Source of the DNA: Endomicrobiia bacterium
Lineage (GTDB): Bacteria > Elusimicrobiota > Endomicrobiia > DTEH01
Assembly (NCBI GenBank): GCA_025059805.1
Contig: JANXDG010000050.1
Coordinates: 18,157-82,156 of the forward strand
DNA: 64,000 nt
Direction of reading: 5' to 3'
This document shows positions 10,109-63,438 of the stretch, in pieces. Position 1 is the first letter of the stretch; each line of letters starts with the position of its first letter. Under the pieces are notes generated by a model. That model had not been told where the DNA came from, did no database searches, and saw nothing but the letters and a program-made list of their open reading frames with translations. The translations under genes and the position numbers were made by a program.

Positions 10109-11275
10109 CTATTTCAATATTTTTAACAACTCGTGATAAACTCTAACAGGAGTTATTGTTTCCATACAATCAGGTTTTTTATCACAATTACGTCTATAAC
10201 ATACAACACAACTTTTATTAGAAACAATTTTTGTACCTAACCCATAAAGTTCTATCTCGTTTGCAGAAGTAGGACCAAAAAGTACAACCACTTTTTTCTT
10301 TAATGCCAATGCTATATGTAATGCTAAACTGTCAGAAGTGATAACTACGTCACAAAGGTTCACCAGAGAAAAAAATTGTCTTAATGTGTTATTACATCCT
10401 GTATCTATAATTTTAGTAGAGAGTAGCGGGTAGCGAGCAGTGAATAATGTAATAATTTTTTTATTTCTTTGTTCTTCTTTTACTCCGCCGAATAATAAAA
10501 TTTTAATTTCTTTACCCACATAATTCTTACTGCTCGCTATAAGTTTCATAAGTTCTACTGTTTGGGGAACAGGATATTCTTTTTTCTCCCATTTGTCACC
10601 GCCGCCAAGATTTATACCAACAAAAACAAATTTTTTAGATTTTTCATTATTAGAAACATACGGTTCTATAAAATTTTTTGCGAACAATTTTTCTTCATCG
10701 GTTAGTTTAATTATAATAGGATATTCTGAAGAAGATAAATCTTTAAACTCTAAAATTTCCATCAAATATTGTTGATAAGTTTTTTGATTTTTTTTCTTCA
10801 ACAAGTCATTGTGACTTAGGTCAAACCATTGTTTTGCAGCATCGTTTGAACATAAAATTCTATTATCGCCATCTAAATAAAAACCATAAATTTGTTTAGC
10901 AAAAATATTCCTTGTTAACCGCAACGCGTCAAGATCAAGGTCAAGGTTTATCATAATGTCAAATTTTTCACTAAATAAAAGAAAAGATTGACTTAATGGT
11001 ATAACTTCATTAATATAAGAGTTATTATACAAAACTTCAACTGCGTTGTCCTCCGTTATCCAGGTAAGTTTTGAGTTTTTCCATCGTGTATGAATAGGTT
11101 TAAGAATACAAGTTGTACGGACAACATCGCCTATCGCTGCAAGTTTTATCACCAAGATTTTTTTATTTACAGGTTTATAAAATTTACAATTTGCACATAC
11201 TACACTTGCATTATCCTTATGAAACTTACAAGGTCTGTCAGAAAGAAAATAAATACAATCTTGTTTATAATTCAT
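10109..11275 (-). CDS. Glycosyltransferase family 9 (heptosyltransferase-like) with N- and C-terminal Cys clusters
   Basis: KLAAIGDVVRTTCILKPI resembles the RLSxLGD motif of ADP-heptose:LPS heptosyltransferases. The extra Cys-rich segments (CKFHKDNASVVCANCKFY and CVVCYRRNCDKKPDC) are atypical. Confidence 0.6.
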   Translation of the reverse strand: MNYKQDCIYFLSDRPCKFHKDNASVVCANCKFYKPVNKKILVIKLAAIGDVVRTTCILKPIHTRWKNSKLTWITEDNAVEVLYNNSYINEVIPLSQSFLLFSEKFDIMINLDLDLDALRLTRNIFAKQIYGFYLDGDNRILCSNDAAKQWFDLSHNDLLKKKNQKTYQQYLMEILEFKDLSSSEYPIIIKLTDEEKLFAKNFIEPYVSNNEKSKKFVFVGINLGGGDKWEKKEYPVPQTVELMKLIASSKNYVGKEIKILLFGGVKEEQRNKKIITLFTARYPLLSTKIIDTGCNNTLRQFFSLVNLCDVVITSDSLALHIALALKKKVVVLFGPTSANEIELYGLGTKIVSNKSCVVCYRRNCDKKPDCMETITPVRVYHELLKILK

Positions 11276-11279
11276 TTTA

Positions 11280-12101
11280 TTAAACTCTTACTTGAATACC
11301 AGCAGAGTTCATTGCAGTTTTCACTTTTTTTATAGAATACTTTTTATAATGAAACACTGAAGCTGCAAGCACTGCGGAAACTTTTGCCTTCTTTACAACC
11401 TCTATAAAATGTTCTATTTTGCCAGCACCGCCTGAAGCTATGACAGGTATATTTACTGCATCAACTACTGCTTTTGTAAGTTCAACATCGTATCCTTGAT
11501 TAGTACCATCAGCATCTATACTTGTAAGCAAAATCTCGCCAGCACCAAGTTTCTCAACTTTCCTTGCCCAAAATACTGCATCTAACCCTGTTGGTGTTGA
11601 CCCTGCATTTATATATACTTCCCACTTCTTGCTTTCAACTTTTGATCGTGAACTGTGAACTGTGAACCGTGAACTATGAACTGTGAACTGTGAACCGTGA
11701 ACTAACTTAGCATCTATCGCCACAACTATACATTGTGAACCAAACATTTTCGCAGCTTGTTTCACAAAATCAGGATTTTTAACAGCAGCAGTGTTTATTG
11801 CAACTTTATCCGCACCTGAGTTCAACAAATCACGAATATCATCTAAACTTTTAACACCACCACCTACTGTTAACGGTACAAAAACATTTTGTGCTGTACG
11901 TTTTACCACATCTAACAATATTTGTCTTTTCTCAATTGTCGCTGTAATGTCTAAAAAAACAATTTCGTCTGCTCCTTCGTCAGAATACCATTTCGCAAGT
12001 TCCACAGGGTCACCCGCATAACGTAAATTCTTAAAATGAATACCTTTTACAACTTTACCTTCTTTTACATCAAGACATGGAATTATTCGTATTGTGTACA
12101 T
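11280..12101 (-). CDS. hisF: Imidazole glycerol phosphate synthase cyclase subunit HisF (carries an in-frame repeat-encoded insertion)
   Basis: [38 protein letters not shown] motifs. An extra ~20 aa segment [17 protein letters not shown] is encoded by a heptamer tandem repeat. Confidence 0.85.
11648..11703. repeat. Tandem heptamer repeat (GTGAACT on plus strand, AGTTCAC on the coding strand), 8 units, inside hisF
   Basis: Direct reading: gtgaact gtgaact gtgaacc gtgaact atgaact gtgaact gtgaacc gtgaact. Confidence 0.9.
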
Positions 12102-12115
12102 AAAAATTTATTTAG

Positions 12116-12976
12116 TCATTTATGCAATAATAAAATTATTATGTCCACTATTAACAAAACTACAAAACCTGACAAACCTAACATACCAACTATAAATTCA
12201 TTACCGCCTTTCAAAAACAATATTGAAATTCCATATGTTGCATTTAAAGTACCATGAAGGATAGAAGTTGCAATCACAGAACCTGATTTAAATCGTATAT
12301 AGTTAAAAATTGGTGAATATAAAACACAAAAAATTATCATCCATAAAACACCTAAAGTAGGATTACTTGGATAATTATGTCCCTGTAGAATCAACGGTAT
12401 ATGCCACACTCCCCAAATAAATCCTGTCATTGTTGAAACTTTCCAGAAGTTAAGTTTCTGAGATAACTCATTAAATAAAAACCCGCGCCAACCTATCTCT
12501 TCACCAAACGCTACTAATGCGTTTATAGTAGCACCTGCGACTAACGATTGTAAACTCCATACCACTACAGGACTAACCTGTGCTGAATCAAACTGTGTTC
12601 TTATTTGCCTTAATTGTTCTTGTGACATTGTTTTACCTAATCTTTCAAAAAACGCTTCCATATCTACTGAAACTTCTATCCCTGGAAACAAACTTGCTAT
12701 ACCAATAGATGCATAAGACAAAACTAATGGCAACAACCATGCAACTAAAAACCAAAAATTAACTTTGAACTTAATCCCACAAGTATCATTAACATCATTA
12801 TGATAAAAAATCCTTTCAATAACTATTACAGAAATTAACGGACAAAACATATACAAAACTGCCACAAGGATACCTGTACTACTATTCCACTTACCTCCAA
12901 TAAGAGGAAATCCTATACCTATCAGCCAACTTAGTATGAATGTAAATACTAAAAATCTTATGGCACGCTCAGTCAT
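12116..12976 (-). CDS. CPBP family intramembrane glutamic endopeptidase (CAAX protease-like)
   Basis: EEIGWRGFLF (EExxxR motif), later conserved His motifs, and a multi-TM profile. Confidence 0.7.
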   Translation of the reverse strand: MTERAIRFLVFTFILSWLIGIGFPLIGGKWNSSTGILVAVLYMFCPLISVIVIERIFYHNDVNDTCGIKFKVNFWFLVAWLLPLVLSYASIGIASLFPGIEVSVDMEAFFERLGKTMSQEQLRQIRTQFDSAQVSPVVVWSLQSLVAGATINALVAFGEEIGWRGFLFNELSQKLNFWKVSTMTGFIWGVWHIPLILQGHNYPSNPTLGVLWMIIFCVLYSPIFNYIRFKSGSVIATSILHGTLNATYGISILFLKGGNEFIVGMLGLSGFVVLLIVDIIILLLHK

Positions 12977-12995: not shown

Positions 12996-13619
12996 TTACA
13001 ACAACTCAAAATATTTCATTATGTTACTAAGCAGTTTCAAACCTTTATCACCACTTTTTTCAAGATGAAACTGTGTCGCAACAAGATTGTTTTTAACTAT
13101 CATTGAACAAAATTTCACACCATAACACGTAGTAGCAAAAACAATATTTTTCTCAGACACCAAAGGATAATATGAATGAACAAAATAAAAATATTCTTCA
13201 TCTCGTAATCCAGCAAGTAGTGCTGTATTTTTATTTTTAAACCTTACAATGTTCCAACAAATATGTGGAACAGGTAGTCCTCGTGTAGAAAACTTTACTA
13301 CCTTTCCACTAACTAAACTAAGACCTTTAACATCTTTTGCTTCCTCACTTGAATTAAACACAAGCTGAATACCAAGACAAATACCTAATATTGGTTTACC
13401 AAGAGAAAAAAATTTTTTTATTTCTTCATCCAACCCAGTACTATTTAACATCTTCATTGCAGAACCAAAATTGCCAACACCTGGTAAAATTAAAACATCA
13501 CAGTTTTTTATCGGCGAAGAATTAATAATCAGAGGTTGGTAACCTAAAACATCTATCGCTTTGCTTATACTCATCAAATTGCCAGCACCATAGTTTATAA
13601 TACCAACTTTTCTAATCAC
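12996..13619 (-). CDS. hisH: Imidazole glycerol phosphate synthase glutamine amidotransferase subunit HisH
   Basis: GAGNLMS, GVGNFG, catalytic GICLGIQL cysteine and FHLEKS histidine motifs. Confidence 0.85.
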   Translation of the reverse strand: MIRKVGIINYGAGNLMSISKAIDVLGYQPLIINSSPIKNCDVLILPGVGNFGSAMKMLNSTGLDEEIKKFFSLGKPILGICLGIQLVFNSSEEAKDVKGLSLVSGKVVKFSTRGLPVPHICWNIVRFKNKNTALLAGLRDEEYFYFVHSYYPLVSEKNIVFATTCYGVKFCSMIVKNNLVATQFHLEKSGDKGLKLLSNIMKYFELL

Positions 13620-19233: not shown

Positions 19234-20964
19234 CTATCTACGCTTCTTTAAAAATTTACAAAGTTGAGAATACGACATTGTATTAACCACATCTTTTTTC
19301 TCAAGCCAGCCACGACGTGCTACATATACACCTAAAATAAGATATTCCATTTGTGAGATATGATGTGCATCAGTTCCAATTGAAAGCATTACACCATGTT
19401 CCTTCGCATATTTTGAATTTACATCATCTAAGTCAAGCCGTTCCGGGAAAGCGTTTATTTCAAGCATAACATCATTTTTGCCAGCGTATTCTATTATTTT
19501 GGAGATATTAACTCTGTAAGGAGAACGTTTATTTAATAATCTTCCGGTAGGATGTGAAATAGAGTGAACATATTTATTATCAATAGCGCGCATAATACGT
19601 TCAGTAATTTGTTCTTCTGACTGTTTAAACCCTGTATGTATTGCTGCTATTACAAAATCTAACTCTTTCAAAACATCGTCGGGATAATCAAGTTTACCAT
19701 CAGAGGTTATATCAACTTCTTGTCCACAAAGGATTTTTACTTTACTTGTCTTATTTATATTTCTTATTTCATCAATTTTCTTATACAAATCCTTAATTGA
19801 AACACCACCTGCTACTTTCAAACTTTGTGAATGGTCACATATTATAATCCATTCATAACCTAATTTTTCTGCATACTCTACAATTTCTTTTATTGTATTT
19901 GTTCCATCTGAGTATTTTGAATGAATATGAGTATCACCTTTGATATCTTTCATCTCTAACAATTTAGGTAGTTCACCTTTTAATGCATATTCAATTTCTC
20001 CCCTATCTTCTCTTAACTCCGGCTCTATATATTGTAAGTCTAAAATTTTATAAATTTCTTCTTCAGTTCTGCCACAGATAGGTTTATCTTTTCTACCAAT
20101 CTTAAACACTCCATATTCGCTAAGAGTTAATCCTTTCTTATTTGCAATTTCTCTTAAATGAATGTTATGTTGCTTTGAACCTGTAAAATACTGCAATGCA
20201 GCACCGTATACTTCTTTTGGTACAACTCTAAGGTCTACCTGAATGTTGGAATCTGTCAATATACTTCCTTTAGTGTCACCGCTTGCCATCACTTTTTTTA
20301 CCATAGGCAATTTTGTAAATTTTTCAATTATATATTTTTCCTTCCCTGGTACAACACAACATAGAATATCTATATCACCTATGGTTTCCTTTCTTCTACG
20401 GAGAGAACCACAAGGATCTATGTTTACTACCTCTTTGTTTTTCTTTATCTCTTTTAATATCTCTTCAACAGTTTTCAACGCGTCAAACAACAGTAATCTT
20501 TGTTCCGAAACTGACAAAAGTTGTATCCCTTCAACAATATTTTGTTCAACCTTTTCCCCAAAACCGGGTAAATTCCTCAACATACCTTTCTGTGCATATT
20601 CTTTAAGAGTTTGTATATCTTTCACCCCGAGTTTTTCATAAATAAGACGAACACGTTTTGGTCCTAACCCAGGTATTCGTAACATATCAAATATTCCTTC
20701 GGGGAACTTTGATTTAAGTTCTTCTAAACGTTTAATTTTGCCTGTTTCAAAATACTCTACAATTTTTTCTGCTATACTTTTCCCAACACCAGGAATTGAT
20801 GAAAGCTTATCAAAATTTTTTGCTAAATCCTCAATAGCTTCAGGTAACGATTCTATCACCTGTGCTGCTTTTTCATAAGCACGAACTTTGAATGGATTTT
20901 CATCAGTTAAACTCAAAAGTTGTGCTATAAGATAAAACTGTTCTGCAACTTCTTTATTTCTCAT
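19234..20964 (-). CDS. polX: DNA polymerase X family protein with C-terminal PHP domain
   Basis: N-terminal HhH/Pol-beta-like region (GIGKSIAEKI, GLGPKR), nucleotidyltransferase GSLRRRKETIGDIDIL, C-terminal PHP (HIHSKYSDG). Confidence 0.8.
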   Translation of the reverse strand: MRNKEVAEQFYLIAQLLSLTDENPFKVRAYEKAAQVIESLPEAIEDLAKNFDKLSSIPGVGKSIAEKIVEYFETGKIKRLEELKSKFPEGIFDMLRIPGLGPKRVRLIYEKLGVKDIQTLKEYAQKGMLRNLPGFGEKVEQNIVEGIQLLSVSEQRLLLFDALKTVEEILKEIKKNKEVVNIDPCGSLRRRKETIGDIDILCCVVPGKEKYIIEKFTKLPMVKKVMASGDTKGSILTDSNIQVDLRVVPKEVYGAALQYFTGSKQHNIHLREIANKKGLTLSEYGVFKIGRKDKPICGRTEEEIYKILDLQYIEPELREDRGEIEYALKGELPKLLEMKDIKGDTHIHSKYSDGTNTIKEIVEYAEKLGYEWIIICDHSQSLKVAGGVSIKDLYKKIDEIRNINKTSKVKILCGQEVDITSDGKLDYPDDVLKELDFVIAAIHTGFKQSEEQITERIMRAIDNKYVHSISHPTGRLLNKRSPYRVNISKIIEYAGKNDVMLEINAFPERLDLDDVNSKYAKEHGVMLSIGTDAHHISQMEYLILGVYVARRGWLEKKDVVNTMSYSQLCKFLKKRR

Positions 20965-20966
20965 AA

Positions 20967-21038
20967 AGTTAGTTGTTTAGGCGTTTAGTTGTTTAGGCGT
21001 TTAGGCATTTAGGCGTTTAGTTGCTTGAATGTTTAGGA
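20967..21038. repeat. Tandem octamer repeat (GTTTAGGC / GTTTAGTT), about 9 units, in the spacer upstream of polX
   Basis: Direct reading: gtttaggc gtttagtt gtttaggc gtttaggc atttaggc gtttagtt gcttgaat gtttagga. Confidence 0.9.
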
Positions 21039-21779
21039 TATTATTTGAGTAAACCTTATTGCATCATCGTACATTGTAGAGTTGTTAAACATTACATAAT
21101 TAAGATTTTTATCACATAACTTATAAACTTTTTTAAGTTCTTCATCAGTAAATTGATAGTTATAATCAAGCCGATTACCTATGTGTAAACCATGTAAGCG
21201 ATAGTATCTATATTCTCCGTAATAAGATCTACCATATAATGGATCAACACAATGAATCAGATTTAATTCACTTGCAATTTTTCTTATAACCTTTTCATTC
21301 CATTCTTCGCCACGAAGTTCTATTATAAAATCAAAATTATACTTTTGTCTATCCTTTTGTACTTTTTTAAAGAAATTATAAAGATTTTTTAAATTCATAT
21401 CTCCAGGTGTAAAACTTGACGGACATTGAAATAAAATTTTTCTACATCCAAGTGCTACTGCAAAATCTTTTGTTCGTTGCCAAGCAGTTAAAACTTCATC
21501 TGTCAGCATAAAAAATCCATAGTTTTTTGGTTCACCAAGTTTTTCTTTCATCCTGCGGTAAGTAAACGATGTTGCTTTATGTGTGATAACTTGCCATGCT
21601 TTAATAATAAACTCAAAATTAGGATTTCGTTCCTCTGCTTCCTTTCTCCATCGTAATGCTGATTTTACTGGCGGCAGTTGATAAAATGTTGAATTAATCT
21701 CAATACAAGGAAATTCTTCATAATATTTTTTTTGTGCGATAGGGAAACCACAACATCCTATCATTATTGTTTTCTTCAT
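21033..21779 (-). CDS. DUF72 (UPF0759) family protein
   Basis: MIGCCGF...FYQLP N-terminal signature of DUF72/YecE-like proteins. Confidence 0.65.
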   Translation of the reverse strand: MKKTIMIGCCGFPIAQKKYYEEFPCIEINSTFYQLPPVKSALRWRKEAEERNPNFEFIIKAWQVITHKATSFTYRRMKEKLGEPKNYGFFMLTDEVLTAWQRTKDFAVALGCRKILFQCPSSFTPGDMNLKNLYNFFKKVQKDRQKYNFDFIIELRGEEWNEKVIRKIASELNLIHCVDPLYGRSYYGEYRYYRLHGLHIGNRLDYNYQFTDEELKKVYKLCDKNLNYVMFNNSTMYDDAIRFTQIIS

Positions 21780-59958: not shown

Positions 59959-62900
59959 CTAACTTTTAGAATTATGCCAGAATTGTAAAGAACCTACATT
60001 AAAATTAACTTTCTTAGTGAGAATATTATAATTCTTCTTTAATTCTTTTATTGATTCTATTACACACTGTGCTGCTTCCAATGTTGTTATTATGGGTATA
60101 TTGTTAACCAGAGCGTTTCTACGAATCATAAATCCATCTGAGAAAGATCTTCCTTTACCAGTCGGTGTGTTTATCACTAAGTTAACATCACGATTTAAAA
60201 TTACATCAACTACGTTTGGTCTTCCTTCGGAAAGTTTGTTAACCTTTTCACAATTGATACCATATTTAGATAAATATTCCGCTGTACCAGAAGTCGCTAT
60301 TATCTTAAAACCTAATTCTGCTAATTGTTTTGCTATTTTAACTCCTTTCTGTTTATCTTTGTTATTCAAACTTAGCAAAACTTTACCTTCTATCGGTATT
60401 TCACTGTTAGCAGCAAATTGTGATTTTGCATATGCTAACGCAAATGTTCTATCAATACCCATAACTTCACCAGTTGACCTCATTTCTGGTGATAAAACTA
60501 CATCTACATCTGCAAATTTTTGAAATGGCAAAACTACTTCTTTTACTGTATAATACTTTAAGTTAAAAATTTTGTCTTGTGAAAAATTATAATGTTTTAA
60601 TAAATCCGATAATTTATAACCTAACATAACTTTAGTAGCAACTTTTGCTATGGGTAAACCAATTGTTTTTGAAACATAAGGTACTGTACGTGACGCACGC
60701 GGGTTAACTTCAAGGACATAAATTATACCGTCTTTTATTGCAAGCTGTAAATTCATTAATCCCTTTACTTTTAATTCCCTTGCCAATAAATTTGTATACT
60801 TAAAAATCGTTTTATATTGTTGTTCTGAGATTGAAATCGGAGGTATTACACATGCGCTATCACCTGAATGTACACCAGCAGCTTCAATATGTTCCATAAT
60901 TCCAGCAATAAAAACTTCTTCACCGTCACATATAACATCAACATCAAGTTCAGTCGCATTTTCTAAAAAACGGTCAATTATTACCGCAGCAGAAGGTGCA
61001 GCAAAACGTTCCGCTTCTTCAAACAACTTTGATAAGTATGAGCTTAACGTAGTTTCATCATAAATAACTTCCATTGCACGGCCACCAAGAACATAAGATG
61101 GCCGCACAATAACAGGAAAACCAATTTTACAAGCAATTCTAATTGCTTCTTTGTAATCCCGTGCATATCCATGTTCAGGATATGGTAGTTTAAGTCTCTT
61201 TAAAACTTTTGCAAAAAGTTCTCTATCTTCTGCAAGAGATATATTCTCAGGTTGCGTCCCTAATACTTTAACATTAAAAGATTTTAACTTTAAGGCAATG
61301 TTAAGTGGTGTCTGACCACCAAACTGTAGTATTACTCCAAGAAGTTTAGTATTTGTAACTTGTGATATAATCTGTTCTGTTTTATATAAATTAAGAACAT
61401 CCTCAAATGTTATAGGCTCAAAGTAAAGTTTATCTGAAGTATCATAATCTGTGGAGACAGTTTCAGGATTACAGTTTACCATTATTGCTTCTATGTTTTC
61501 CTCTTTAAGTGCCATTACAGCATGGACACAACAATAATCAAACTCTATCCCTTGGCCAATACGGTTAGGTCCCGCACCTAATACAATAACTTTGTCTTTA
61601 TTTTTCTTTGTAAATGTTAAACTTTCGTTAAAATACGATAATTCTTCTACTGTATATTTCTGTGAACTATGAACTGTAAACTGTGAACGACTATCAACAC
61701 CGTCATAAGTAGAATAAAAATATGGCGTATATGCTTCAAATTCTGCAGCACAGGTGTCTACCACTTTATAGTTTGGCAGTAAATTTTGTTTTAAACGAAA
61801 GTTCGTAATTTCTTCTGTTTTTTTATCCAACATATACGCAATCTGATGGTCAGAAAAGCCATAGCGTTTAGCTTCCAAAAGTAATTTTTTAAATTCATCA
61901 CTTCCAAATTTTTTCTTAGATTTAGCGAATAACCTAATTCCCTGTTCTAAATCAACGATTTCTTTTATCTGATATATAAACCACTTATCAATACGCGAAA
62001 TTTTAGAAATTTCTTCAACTGACATACCAAGCTGTAACGCATATTTTATGTTAAAAACACGATCACAGTTCGGATGACGTAATTTGTATTCAACAAGTTT
62101 TAAATATTGTTGTCTTTCTTTGTTATCTTCTGGTAAACTCATCAATCTTTCAACTATTTTCACTTGACCTAACCCGTCCGCACCTAAACCATATCTACCT
62201 ATTTCTAACCCACGTAATGCTTTCTGTAGTGCTTCTTTAAAAGTTCGTCCAATAGCCATTACTTCACCTATGGACTTCATCTGTGAACCTAATATTTGAT
62301 AACTATCATTTACAACTTCGCCATTTTTTGTCACTGGTTGAAATTTTTCAAATGCAAATTTTGGTATTTTAACAACTACGTAATCTATTGTTGGTTCAAA
62401 ACATGCTGGTGTCTTCTTAGTTATGTCATTAGGTATCTCATCTAAAGTATAGCCAACAGCTAACAACGCTGCTATTTTCGCAATTGGGAAACCTGTTGCT
62501 TTTGACGCTAACGCTGAAGAACGTGACACTCTGGGATTCATTTCTATTATGACAATCCTGCCAGTTTGAGGGTTAATAGCAAATTGTATGTTAGAACCGC
62601 CAGTTTCCACACCTACAGCTCGTATACACTTAAATGCCATATCACGCATACGTTGATATTCTCTATCAGTGAGCGTCTGTGCAGGCGCAACAGTAATAGA
62701 ATCTCCAGTATGTACACCCATAGGGTCAAAATTTTCTATACTACAAACAATTACACAATTGTTTTTACAATCACGCATCACCTCTAGTTCGTATTCTTTC
62801 CAGCCATCTAAATATTCTTCAATAAGTATCTCAGATATCATTGATGACTGCAGGGCATTTTTTGCAGCTTCTACAAATTCATCTTCGTTGAAAACAATTT

Positions 62901-63438
62901 TAGAACCTGTCCCACCTAAAGTAAACGATGGACGAATAATTAACGGGAAACCAATCTTTTTTGCAATATCTACAGCTTCGGTGAGATTATAAGCAAAACC
63001 ACTTTTTGGTAAATCAAGGCCAACAGCTAACATTGTTTCTTTAAACAATTTTCTGTCCTCACCACGACGTATCGCTTCAACCTTAGCACCAATAAGTTCC
63101 ACATTGTATTTTGAAAGTATACCCAATTCGTCAAGTTTAACCGCAAGATTTAAACCTGTTTGTCCACCAAGTGTCGGAAGTAACGCATCAGGACGTTCTT
63201 TCTCTATAATTTTTTCTAACACTTCGGGAATTAGGGGTTCTATGTAAGTACTATCTGCAAATTCTGGGTCTGTCATTATAGTTGCAGGATTAGAATTAAC
63301 CAGTACAACTTTATAACCCTCTTTTTTTAACACCTTAACAGCTTGAGTACCAGAGTAATCAAATTCACAGGCCTGTCCTATAACTATAGGTCCTGAACCT
63401 ATAACAAGTATTTTTTTAATATCTTTTCTTTTTGGCAT
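59959..63438 (-). CDS. carB: Carbamoyl-phosphate synthase large subunit (carries an in-frame repeat-encoded insertion)
   Basis: Two ATP-grasp halves, [21 protein letters not shown]-like C-terminus. 1159 aa. An extra ~25 aa including SQFTVHSS lies between the oligomerisation region and the second synthetase half. Confidence 0.9.
61663..61690. repeat. Tandem heptamer repeat (GTGAACT family), 4 units, inside carB
   Basis: Direct reading: gtgaact atgaact gtaaact gtgaacg. Same unit as the hisF repeat. Confidence 0.85.

Follow-up and report, generated by a model that had tools for sequence, protein, structure and literature searches.

A heptanucleotide repeat translated within hisF of an Endomicrobia bacterium, probably a tolerated passenger at a hairpin tip

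What is an array of seven-nucleotide units doing in the middle of a histidine biosynthesis gene, where gain or loss of a single unit would break the reading frame? The question is raised by a stretch of 64,000 nucleotides from an Endomicrobiia bacterium (contig JANXDG010000050.1, positions 18,157 to 82,156, assembly GCA_025059805.1), which we refer to as the window. Its source is an Endomicrobia metagenome-assembled genome (MAG), small and AT-rich (32% GC). Here, we examine the array in hisF, its shorter counterpart in carB and their relatives in other genomes. We find that the array is probably a heptanucleotide simple-sequence repeat (SSR) of the RGTTCAC type, a passenger that is translated as part of the solvent-exposed tip of a HisF hairpin.

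An interrupted array in an intact hisF

The features at the locus, all on the minus strand, are as follows.

11280..12101, minus strand: hisF (imidazole glycerol phosphate synthase cyclase subunit), 273 amino acids (aa), intact, identified from its open reading frame (ORF), Pfam PF00977 and NCBIfam TIGR00735.
11648..11703, minus strand: the heptamer array, eight units, which in the sense of hisF are five AGTTCAC, two GGTTCAC and one AGTTCAT.
11649..11704, minus strand: an exact 28-bp (four-unit) direct duplication (Tandem Repeats Finder, TRF: period 28, 2.0 copies, 100% matches).
11625..11647, minus strand: degenerate units GATCAAA AGTTGAA AGCAAGA AG, 3′ of the clean array, recognised by DNA comparison with the relatives L122-L125.
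11628..11693, minus strand: loop codons 137-158, without counterpart in solved HisF structures and predicted to be disordered (PDB alignment and AlphaFold2).

A first-pass annotation of this DNA had described an in-frame (AGTTCAC)8 at 11648-11703. Eight units in frame are indeed present, but they are not identical: on the sense strand their order is AGTTCAC GGTTCAC AGTTCAC AGTTCAT AGTTCAC GGTTCAC AGTTCAC AGTTCAC, and the plus strand accordingly reads as GTGAACT-type units. TRF reports a period of 7, 8.0 copies, 87% matches and a score of 91. Identity within the array is 0.72 at lag 7, as compared to 0.08-0.26 at every other lag up to 13, and across the window the 14-mer (AGTTCAC)2, with at most one mismatch, is matched eight times where shuffles predict 0.03. 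Head-to-tail, in at least three copies and above chance, the array qualifies as a heptanucleotide tandem repeat. What it does not form is a long uninterrupted tract of identical units, as it comprises three unit variants and its longest perfect period-7 run measures 20 bp; no perfect array of at least three units occurs anywhere in the window.

By every sequence measure applied, the host of the array is a bona fide HisF. Its product matches Pfam PF00977 (His_biosynth) at E = 7.9e-85 and scores 370 bits against the HisF equivalog model TIGR00735 (cutoff 294.55), with residues 1-272 covered, while the model of the paralogue WbuZ yields 292.4, under its cutoff of 299.7. The catalytic residues D11 and D130 (Thermotoga maritima numbering) are invariant in the HisF alignment (A1), and the protein is 100% identical to one named HisF in an Endomicrobia MAG.

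Where in the protein does the array lie? In the PDB alignment, solved HisF structures cover residues 3-136 and 159-272 of the query, and the insert falls between structure residues 136 and 137. With 252 aa in the shortest orthologues and 273 aa here, it adds about 21 residues, close to the loop insertion of roughly 20 aa that had been proposed. An AlphaFold2 model computed from the same alignment has an overall predicted template modelling score (pTM) of 0.85, and its per-residue confidence (pLDDT) drops below 50 at residues 138-156. Because this low-confidence segment sits between strand 125-134 (beta5, which carries the catalytic D130) and strand 159-164, the insert is, in the predicted structure, the tip of the beta5/beta5′ hairpin. 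In the HisF fold, the hairpin after beta5 projects from the catalytic face of the barrel. An intein, an intron or a translational bypass was considered for the insert and dismissed, since it comprises 21 aa, is in frame and is free of stops.

Reading frame, strand and changes of unit number

How can a seven-nucleotide unit be translated at all? Read in triplets, such an array passes through all seven cyclic triplets of its unit every 21 nt, and (AGTTCAC)n consequently encodes the same cyclic heptapeptide, S-S-Q-F-T-V-H, in all three frames, with zero stops among its cyclic triplets. The complement, GTGAACT, contains a TGA, and an array in the opposite orientation runs into a stop within three units, whichever the frame. 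Judged from codon content, an array can therefore persist within a gene only if AGTTCAC is on the sense strand.

Changes in unit number are another matter. As the first-pass annotation had anticipated, a change by one unit would disrupt hisF: in simulation, −7, +7, −14, −28 and +28 bp all truncated HisF at 137-161 aa (161 aa for −7, 144 aa for +7 and 154 aa upon removal of one 28-bp copy), and −21 bp left it intact. The total extra length of the insert is a multiple of 3. The exact 28-bp duplication would be the most recent event in the array. As 28 leaves a remainder of 1 upon division by 3, one copy alone between the present flanks would put hisF out of frame; a frame break would therefore have been passed through or simultaneously compensated, and the sequence suggests that a recent frame-breaking change was compensated in this lineage. 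Alternatively, the 28-bp repeat may have been supplied by block conversion from another array.

Close relatives carry degenerate arrays

HisF homologues of 75-85% identity span 259-271 aa and differ in sequence at the insert site, and some at 73-75% identity measure 251-252 aa and have no insert (P0011-P0015, each of 252 aa). In the relatives L122-L126, the hisF DNA at this site follows the pattern RGTTCAY AGTNNAA AGTTWAN AGTTNAT AGTAAAA, in the same 7-nt register as in the window, with lag-7 identities of 0.53-0.62 versus a median of ~0.28 at other lags. In two of them (L122 and L123), the pattern is followed by AACTCNG-type units that resemble the reverse complement of the first arm minus its TGA. 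Degenerate arrays in the same register and at the same site argue for an old array that has recently expanded anew in this lineage. Since those of the relatives at 75-85% identity are degenerate and clearly non-slipping, the insert must also have been kept in frame over long times.

Not all of it was kept in the same frame, however. The 3′ flank in the window, TCAAAAGTTGAAAG, is homologous to units 2-3 of the relatives and is translated in another codon frame (SKVE versus QKLK, the frames being compared by inspection). Unit-number changes thus appear to have shifted the frame inside the insert, with compensation further along. Within one population-level cluster of hisF sequences (at least 93% identity), the insert contains the sole internal indel, of 6 bp, and the majority of substitutions, which marks the insert peptide as the least constrained part of HisF. 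A split hisF was also encountered in a related population, on a 3875-bp JGI contig (P0516 and P0519, pieces of 193 and 83 aa), owing to either a real frameshift or a sequencing error; it breaks near residue 180 and not at the heptamer insert.

Together, this suggests the following course of events. The Endomicrobia group in question would have inherited an array from its common ancestor. In the present lineage it would have been recently re-expanded and homogenised, likely by replication slippage or unequal exchange, with the four-unit (28-bp) duplication as the last step. Selection would demand only that the total length be divisible by 3 and that stops be absent, whatever the peptide; the array would be tolerated because its strand is stop-free, its length a multiple of 3 and its loop disordered. 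On this reading, the array would have no dedicated function, its side effect being a raised risk of frameshift and of in-frame length mutation in hisF.

A second array in carB, and the rest of the window

The window holds a second, related array in another core enzyme.

59959..63438, minus strand: carB (carbamoyl-phosphate synthase large subunit), 1159 aa, identified from its ORF and the Pfam CPSase domains.
61660..61689, minus strand: a shorter degenerate array, CGTTCAC AGTTTAC AGTTCAT AGTTCAC AG, four units in an interdomain linker.

The same unit and encoded peptide had been said to recur in carB 50 kb away, and this array, if degenerate, is the copy in question. It maps to the linker between residues 548 and 557 of Escherichia coli CarB. 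In a representative search, this linker measured 13-15 aa in most CarB proteins versus 38 aa here, which makes it ~24 aa longer than usual. The host sites in hisF and carB are both permissive and outside the protein core. A protein search with the CarB fragment found no close relatives, its matches being fragments at ~50-56% identity. That the peptide recurs in carB is no independent coincidence, because unit and strand are shared and all frames give the same heptapeptide. A lag-7 scan of the window revealed no heptamer array beyond these two. The window has 57 ORFs of at least 150 aa, of which 51 are on the minus strand and six on the plus strand, three of the latter overlapping minus-strand ORFs; with nearly all long ORFs on one strand, both heptamer arrays come to share the same strand and gene orientation.

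A tandem array of a different period lies at 20969-21037, reading GTTTAGGC on the plus strand and GCCTAAAC on the gene strand. It consists of ~6 copies of an octamer (TRF scores 71-89) and is the sole strong lag-8 signal in the window. The array fills the short spacer from the stop of an ORF at 21033..21779 (minus strand) to the start, at 20964, of a gene for a PolX-type DNA polymerase (19234..20964, minus strand), a placement that recalls repeats directly upstream of start codons.

Upstream of hisF lies the gene for its partner.

12996..13619, minus strand: hisH, the glutaminase partner of HisF (NCBIfam TIGR01855, 208 bits versus a cutoff of 105.4).

Between hisH and hisF sits a gene for a CPBP/Rce1-like intramembrane protease (12116-12976), an odd order that is kept in the close relatives L121, L122 and L123. 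No his genes other than hisF and hisH were seen in the examined parts of the window.

RGTTCAC arrays and the excess of period 7 in other phyla

Is the unit peculiar to this bacterium? A scan of one genome per species argues otherwise: among the matches listed, RGTTCAC arrays occur at more than 120 loci in many phyla, often several to a locus. Most arrays among these matches are intergenic or at gene ends and about one tenth lie in long ORFs, in sense orientation, ORF context in other phyla being read from stop-free spans plus Pfam for six cases. The Pfam-confirmed hosts are a pseudouridine synthase, a glycoside hydrolase of family 3 (GH3), a chorismate synthase, the editing domain of a leucyl-tRNA synthetase (LeuRS), a Mur ligase and a protein with class V aminotransferase and AIR-synthase-related (AIR, aminoimidazole ribonucleotide) domains. 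Two Nitrospirota chorismate synthases (aroC in L016 and L062) of 70% identity differ at three loop sites, where one or the other has SQFTVH-type heptamer peptides. At two of the three sites, lengths are the same or one residue apart, as if the loops had been overwritten rather than extended.

Outside genes, an inverted pair of RGTTCAC arrays (L074, 2475-2555) forms a perfect hairpin directly after a TGA stop (z = −13.8). Two further intergenic inverted pairs (L085, 5093-5166; L098, 6760-6945) would form long hairpins by sequence, in an arrangement that, like the former, is reminiscent of terminators or of repetitive extragenic palindromic (REP) elements. Some arrays are interspersed with further heptamer families. 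A mosaic of GTTCACG, GTTGTTG and ACTCCTG heptamer blocks, three repeats within 230 bp, lies at L115 3900-4130 and resembles the cyanobacterial short tandemly repeated repetitive (STRR) sequences.

The period itself stands out more than the unit. In 842 kb of multi-phylum loci, perfect arrays of at least three units number 175 at period 7 and 17, 4, 6 and 9 at periods 4, 5, 6 and 8, respectively; 30 of the 175 have units unrelated to the search pattern. These counts reproduce the known excess of heptanucleotide repeats, described as the most abundant long SSR class in prokaryotes (Mrazek 2007, as relayed in PMC4679880 and PMC4692102). The idea of RGTTCAC as a uniquely special cross-phylum unit was weakened by viral contigs, which contain 32 stretches of it versus 15 and 20 for two scrambled controls. 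With RGTTCAC there exceeding the scrambled units by a factor of only about 2-3, its breadth alone is no proof of a special element. A CAGT core linking these heptamers with STRR and with the TAACTGA repeats was likewise rejected, being found in none of the 30 unrelated arrays (5.5% expected).

Protein databases contain short ‘hypothetical proteins’ (32-98 aa; P0241-P0360) made up nearly entirely of SSQFTVH or GSRFTVH heptads, from Acidobacteria, Burkholderia pseudomallei and the cryptophyte Rhodomonas salina. Most of these are probably ORFs miscalled across non-coding heptamer arrays. The heptad peptide search was therefore of no use for counting in-frame cases, as it mostly returned such short ORFs. 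A literature search for the unit strings gave unrelated eukaryotic matches only.

The same HisF site in distant lineages

Of the 120 best HisF homologues, 116 could be scored, from lineages that include Elusimicrobiota, Omnitrophota and Nitrospirota. About three quarters of them are extended at precisely the insert site, and many of these inserts have a 7-aa periodicity (for instance VHSPQSIVHRK...LSTIDYRL, QRTEDRGQRTEDRG and QLASWPVGQLASWP). Heptamer arrays are confirmed in the DNA, often arranged as two complementary arms. The insert of L130 reads GGTTCAC AGTTCAC AGTTCAC, a loop, and then GTGAACC GTTAACC GTGAACA GTGAACT; those of L127, L276 and L274 contain (CAGTGGC)4 ... (CCACCGA)3, (AGTCCAY)4 (ACCGRCT)4 and AGTCAAT... 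(CTATCGA)4, respectively. In L129 there are two direct arrays, (TCAACAG)3 and (TCGCAAT)3, whose arms are not complementary. Some inserts fold better than shuffles (z = −3.28 in L130, −2.17 in L127 and −1.95 in L123). The insert in the window is not predicted to form an inverted-repeat hairpin (z = +1.36 against shuffles).

The insert-bearing hisF genes of Omnitrophota are part of canonical hisD-B-H-A-F-I operons. Most of the more typical bacterial HisF proteins, at 52-59% identity, have no insert. In a quick neighbour-joining tree computed with the insert masked, which is not robust, insert-bearing and insert-less HisF interleave, and the nearest relatives of L130 have different inserts or none. 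It follows that the HisF site has either remained occupied or been filled repeatedly, with turnover of the unit. On the Omnitrophota contig L274, which also carries an insert-bearing hisF, an AGTAAGT/AGATAGT heptamer array (13199-13249) lies at the 3′ end of rpsP and extends into the spacer before yajC.

A bolder reading, which we regard as doubtful, would take the beta5/beta5′ tip of HisF, along with loops in AroC, LeuRS, Mur ligase and CarB, as a cross-phylum hotspot at which lineage-specific heptamer arrays with matched arms are repeatedly installed or converted in frame. If true, an unrecognised process in a 7-nt register, be it dispersal or ectopic conversion, would write repeat DNA into coding regions and create new disordered protein loops in many bacterial phyla. 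A limited literature search found no description of in-frame heptamer arrays recurrently filling one conserved-enzyme loop across phyla.

Weighing the explanations

How well does a translated, locally evolving SSR account for all of this? Three points weigh against it. Local slippage alone fails to explain one unit at two loci 50 kb apart, nor does it explain different heptamer units and matched complementary arms at the same HisF site; some process of dispersal or conversion would therefore be needed in addition. Moreover, the part of this genome that was examined is the 64-kb window. We nonetheless consider the translated SSR the probable explanation, and the alternatives below fall short of it to differing degrees.

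The first of these is unlikely, although it addresses the first two points and might act alongside slippage. Here, the array would be an in-frame copy of a dispersed, possibly mobile heptamer-array element, akin to Rickettsia palindromic elements (RPE) or miniature inverted-repeat transposable elements (MITE), that arrived by insertion or ectopic conversion, with the HisF loop as a permissive or preferred target. An AGTTCAC-type unit in both hisF and carB is what such an element would leave behind, as are the more than 120 RGTTCAC loci among the matches listed, some of them intergenic inverted pairs that form perfect hairpins after stops. The palindromic HisF inserts of L130, L127, L276 and L274 have arms matched within and different between lineages, and both the other or missing inserts in the nearest relatives of L130 and the interleaving of insert-bearing and insert-less HisF agree with repeated arrival. 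However, the tree behind the latter is not robust, and the copy in the window is one-armed and has no predicted structure. Inspection by eye showed no target-site duplication at L130 or in the window, a terminal inverted repeat was not seen either, and we know of no associated enzyme. Given the 2-3-fold excess over scrambled controls in viral contigs, spread of the unit may reflect the general abundance of heptamers.

Could the array instead serve as a switch? The first-pass annotation had put it forward as a potential contingency (phase-variable) locus. Slippage by one or two units would then turn hisF, and thereby histidine prototrophy, off and on in a subpopulation. We consider this distinctly unlikely. 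What stands of the proposal is the frame break: seven nucleotides are not divisible by 3, HisF is truncated upon changes of −7, +7, −14, −28 and +28 bp, the exact 28-bp duplication implies a recent and compensated break, and the homologous flank, read in another frame in the relatives, points to repeated frame-shifting unit changes. The switch itself is not supported: interruptions leave the tract with 87% matches and no perfect run beyond 20 bp, and its place is the middle of the gene of a core enzyme, not the 5′ end of one with a surface or restriction-modification role. Indeed, HisF and CarB both belong to core biosynthesis and to none of the classes suited to stochastic switching (surface, restriction-modification, uptake), and analogous arrays occur in many other housekeeping genes. 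The relatives hold their degenerate inserts in frame, and among the hisF sequences compared no frameshifted allele at the insert was found, the sole split hisF breaking elsewhere. The 90% protein cluster in the database is a single sequence, found on two contigs.

It is highly unlikely that the insertion is functional, in the sense that the loop, or the repeat as RNA or DNA, modulates HisF, e.g. via the dynamics of the catalytic-face loop, partner binding, translation pausing or mRNA stability. Occupancy of the site in about three quarters of the 116 scorable closest homologues, the canonical his operons around the insert-bearing genes of Omnitrophota and the arm-to-arm complementarity kept across lineages with different units would all be in line with a function. 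Yet neither the peptide sequence nor its length nor even the reading frame is conserved, and many close relatives, P0011-P0015 among them, have no insert. The copy in the window is predicted to be disordered as a peptide and unstructured as RNA, and an Rfam scan of 11000-12500 gave no family above threshold, its sole match being a chance snoRNA (E = 0.13).

Finally, despite its source being a MAG and tandem repeats being prone to mis-assembly, an assembly or sequencing artefact, which had been named as a possible refutation, is exceedingly improbable: ordinary reads span a 56-bp array, the reading frame is preserved, orthologous degenerate arrays come from independent samples, and a second assembly (Logan, SRR15826899) agrees over 4822 bases with one mismatch, at 12500 and thus outside the array, which is identical in both.

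What the locus can teach

Heptanucleotide repeats are the commonest long simple repeats of bacteria. For the questions of why period 7 is favoured and how one unit reaches many loci, the hisF locus offers a clean and datable case, with an old loop array that is degenerate in relatives and would be freshly re-expanded here, and with other heptamer arrays at the same site in distant phyla. It suggests that units of a length indivisible by 3 can be maintained in essential genes, provided that the sense strand is stop-free, the total length a multiple of 3 and the host loop disordered. Such arrays would generate new protein loops and leave a core biosynthetic gene unusually prone to frameshifts. 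If, against our expectation, units were truly switching, this would be a rare case of phase variation of amino-acid prototrophy.

Comparison with known systems

Among known systems, the contingency loci of Haemophilus and Neisseria vary their phase through intragenic SSRs, and heptanucleotide repeats are found in the promoters of hmw1A and hmw2A (PMC8262952). Common to these and to the array in hisF is an SSR unit whose length is not a multiple of 3, so that unit changes shift the frame. Those repeats, however, are long and perfect, reside near the 5′ end or in the promoter of surface or restriction-modification genes and have measured copy-number variation, whereas the present array has interruptions, sits in the middle of a core biosynthetic gene and is known from sequence alone.

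RPE are ~150-bp, non-tandem elements that encode a conserved peptide and are restricted to Rickettsia (PMC10969869). They, too, place short repeated DNA in frame in unrelated metabolic genes at sites compatible with the fold (PMC10969869), and the distant HisF inserts share their palindromic nature. Here, in contrast, the units are 7-nt tandem repeats, the peptide is not conserved and the copy in the window is not palindromic.

Other heptamers have been found dispersed in bacterial genomes, namely the cyanobacterial STRR heptamers, which Mazel reportedly described in 1990, and the TAACTGA direct repeats. As with RGTTCAC, one heptamer occurs at many loci in several phyla, the spreading mechanism is not known and stop codons dictate the orientation. 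At the HisF site of L129, the unit TCAACAG is a rotation of what we take to be the STRR3 unit. The window itself belongs to an Endomicrobia MAG with the unit RGTTCAC, not to a cyanobacterial genome with a described STRR unit, and no cyanobacterial link was found for it. TAACTGA repeats are known from Beggiatoaceae, Cyanobacteria and Bacteroidetes, mainly just upstream of start codons (MacGregor 2015, PMC4679880). The present unit differs from these families, and in-frame placement inside conserved enzymes is not what was reported there.

Because defining features that we looked for were absent, we do not file the array under contingency loci, RPE/MITE or STRR. It belongs with the long heptanucleotide SSRs of prokaryotes (Mrazek, Guo and Shah 2007, as relayed in PMC4679880 and PMC4692102), with which it shares head-to-tail 7-nt units, dispersal in the genome and a period 7 far above neighbouring periods. 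According to the same accounts, such repeats are mostly intergenic, and intragenic ones favour unit lengths that are multiples of 3. Set against that description, what distinguishes the present case is a heptamer array translated in frame, mid-gene, in two core enzymes of a small genome of 32% GC.

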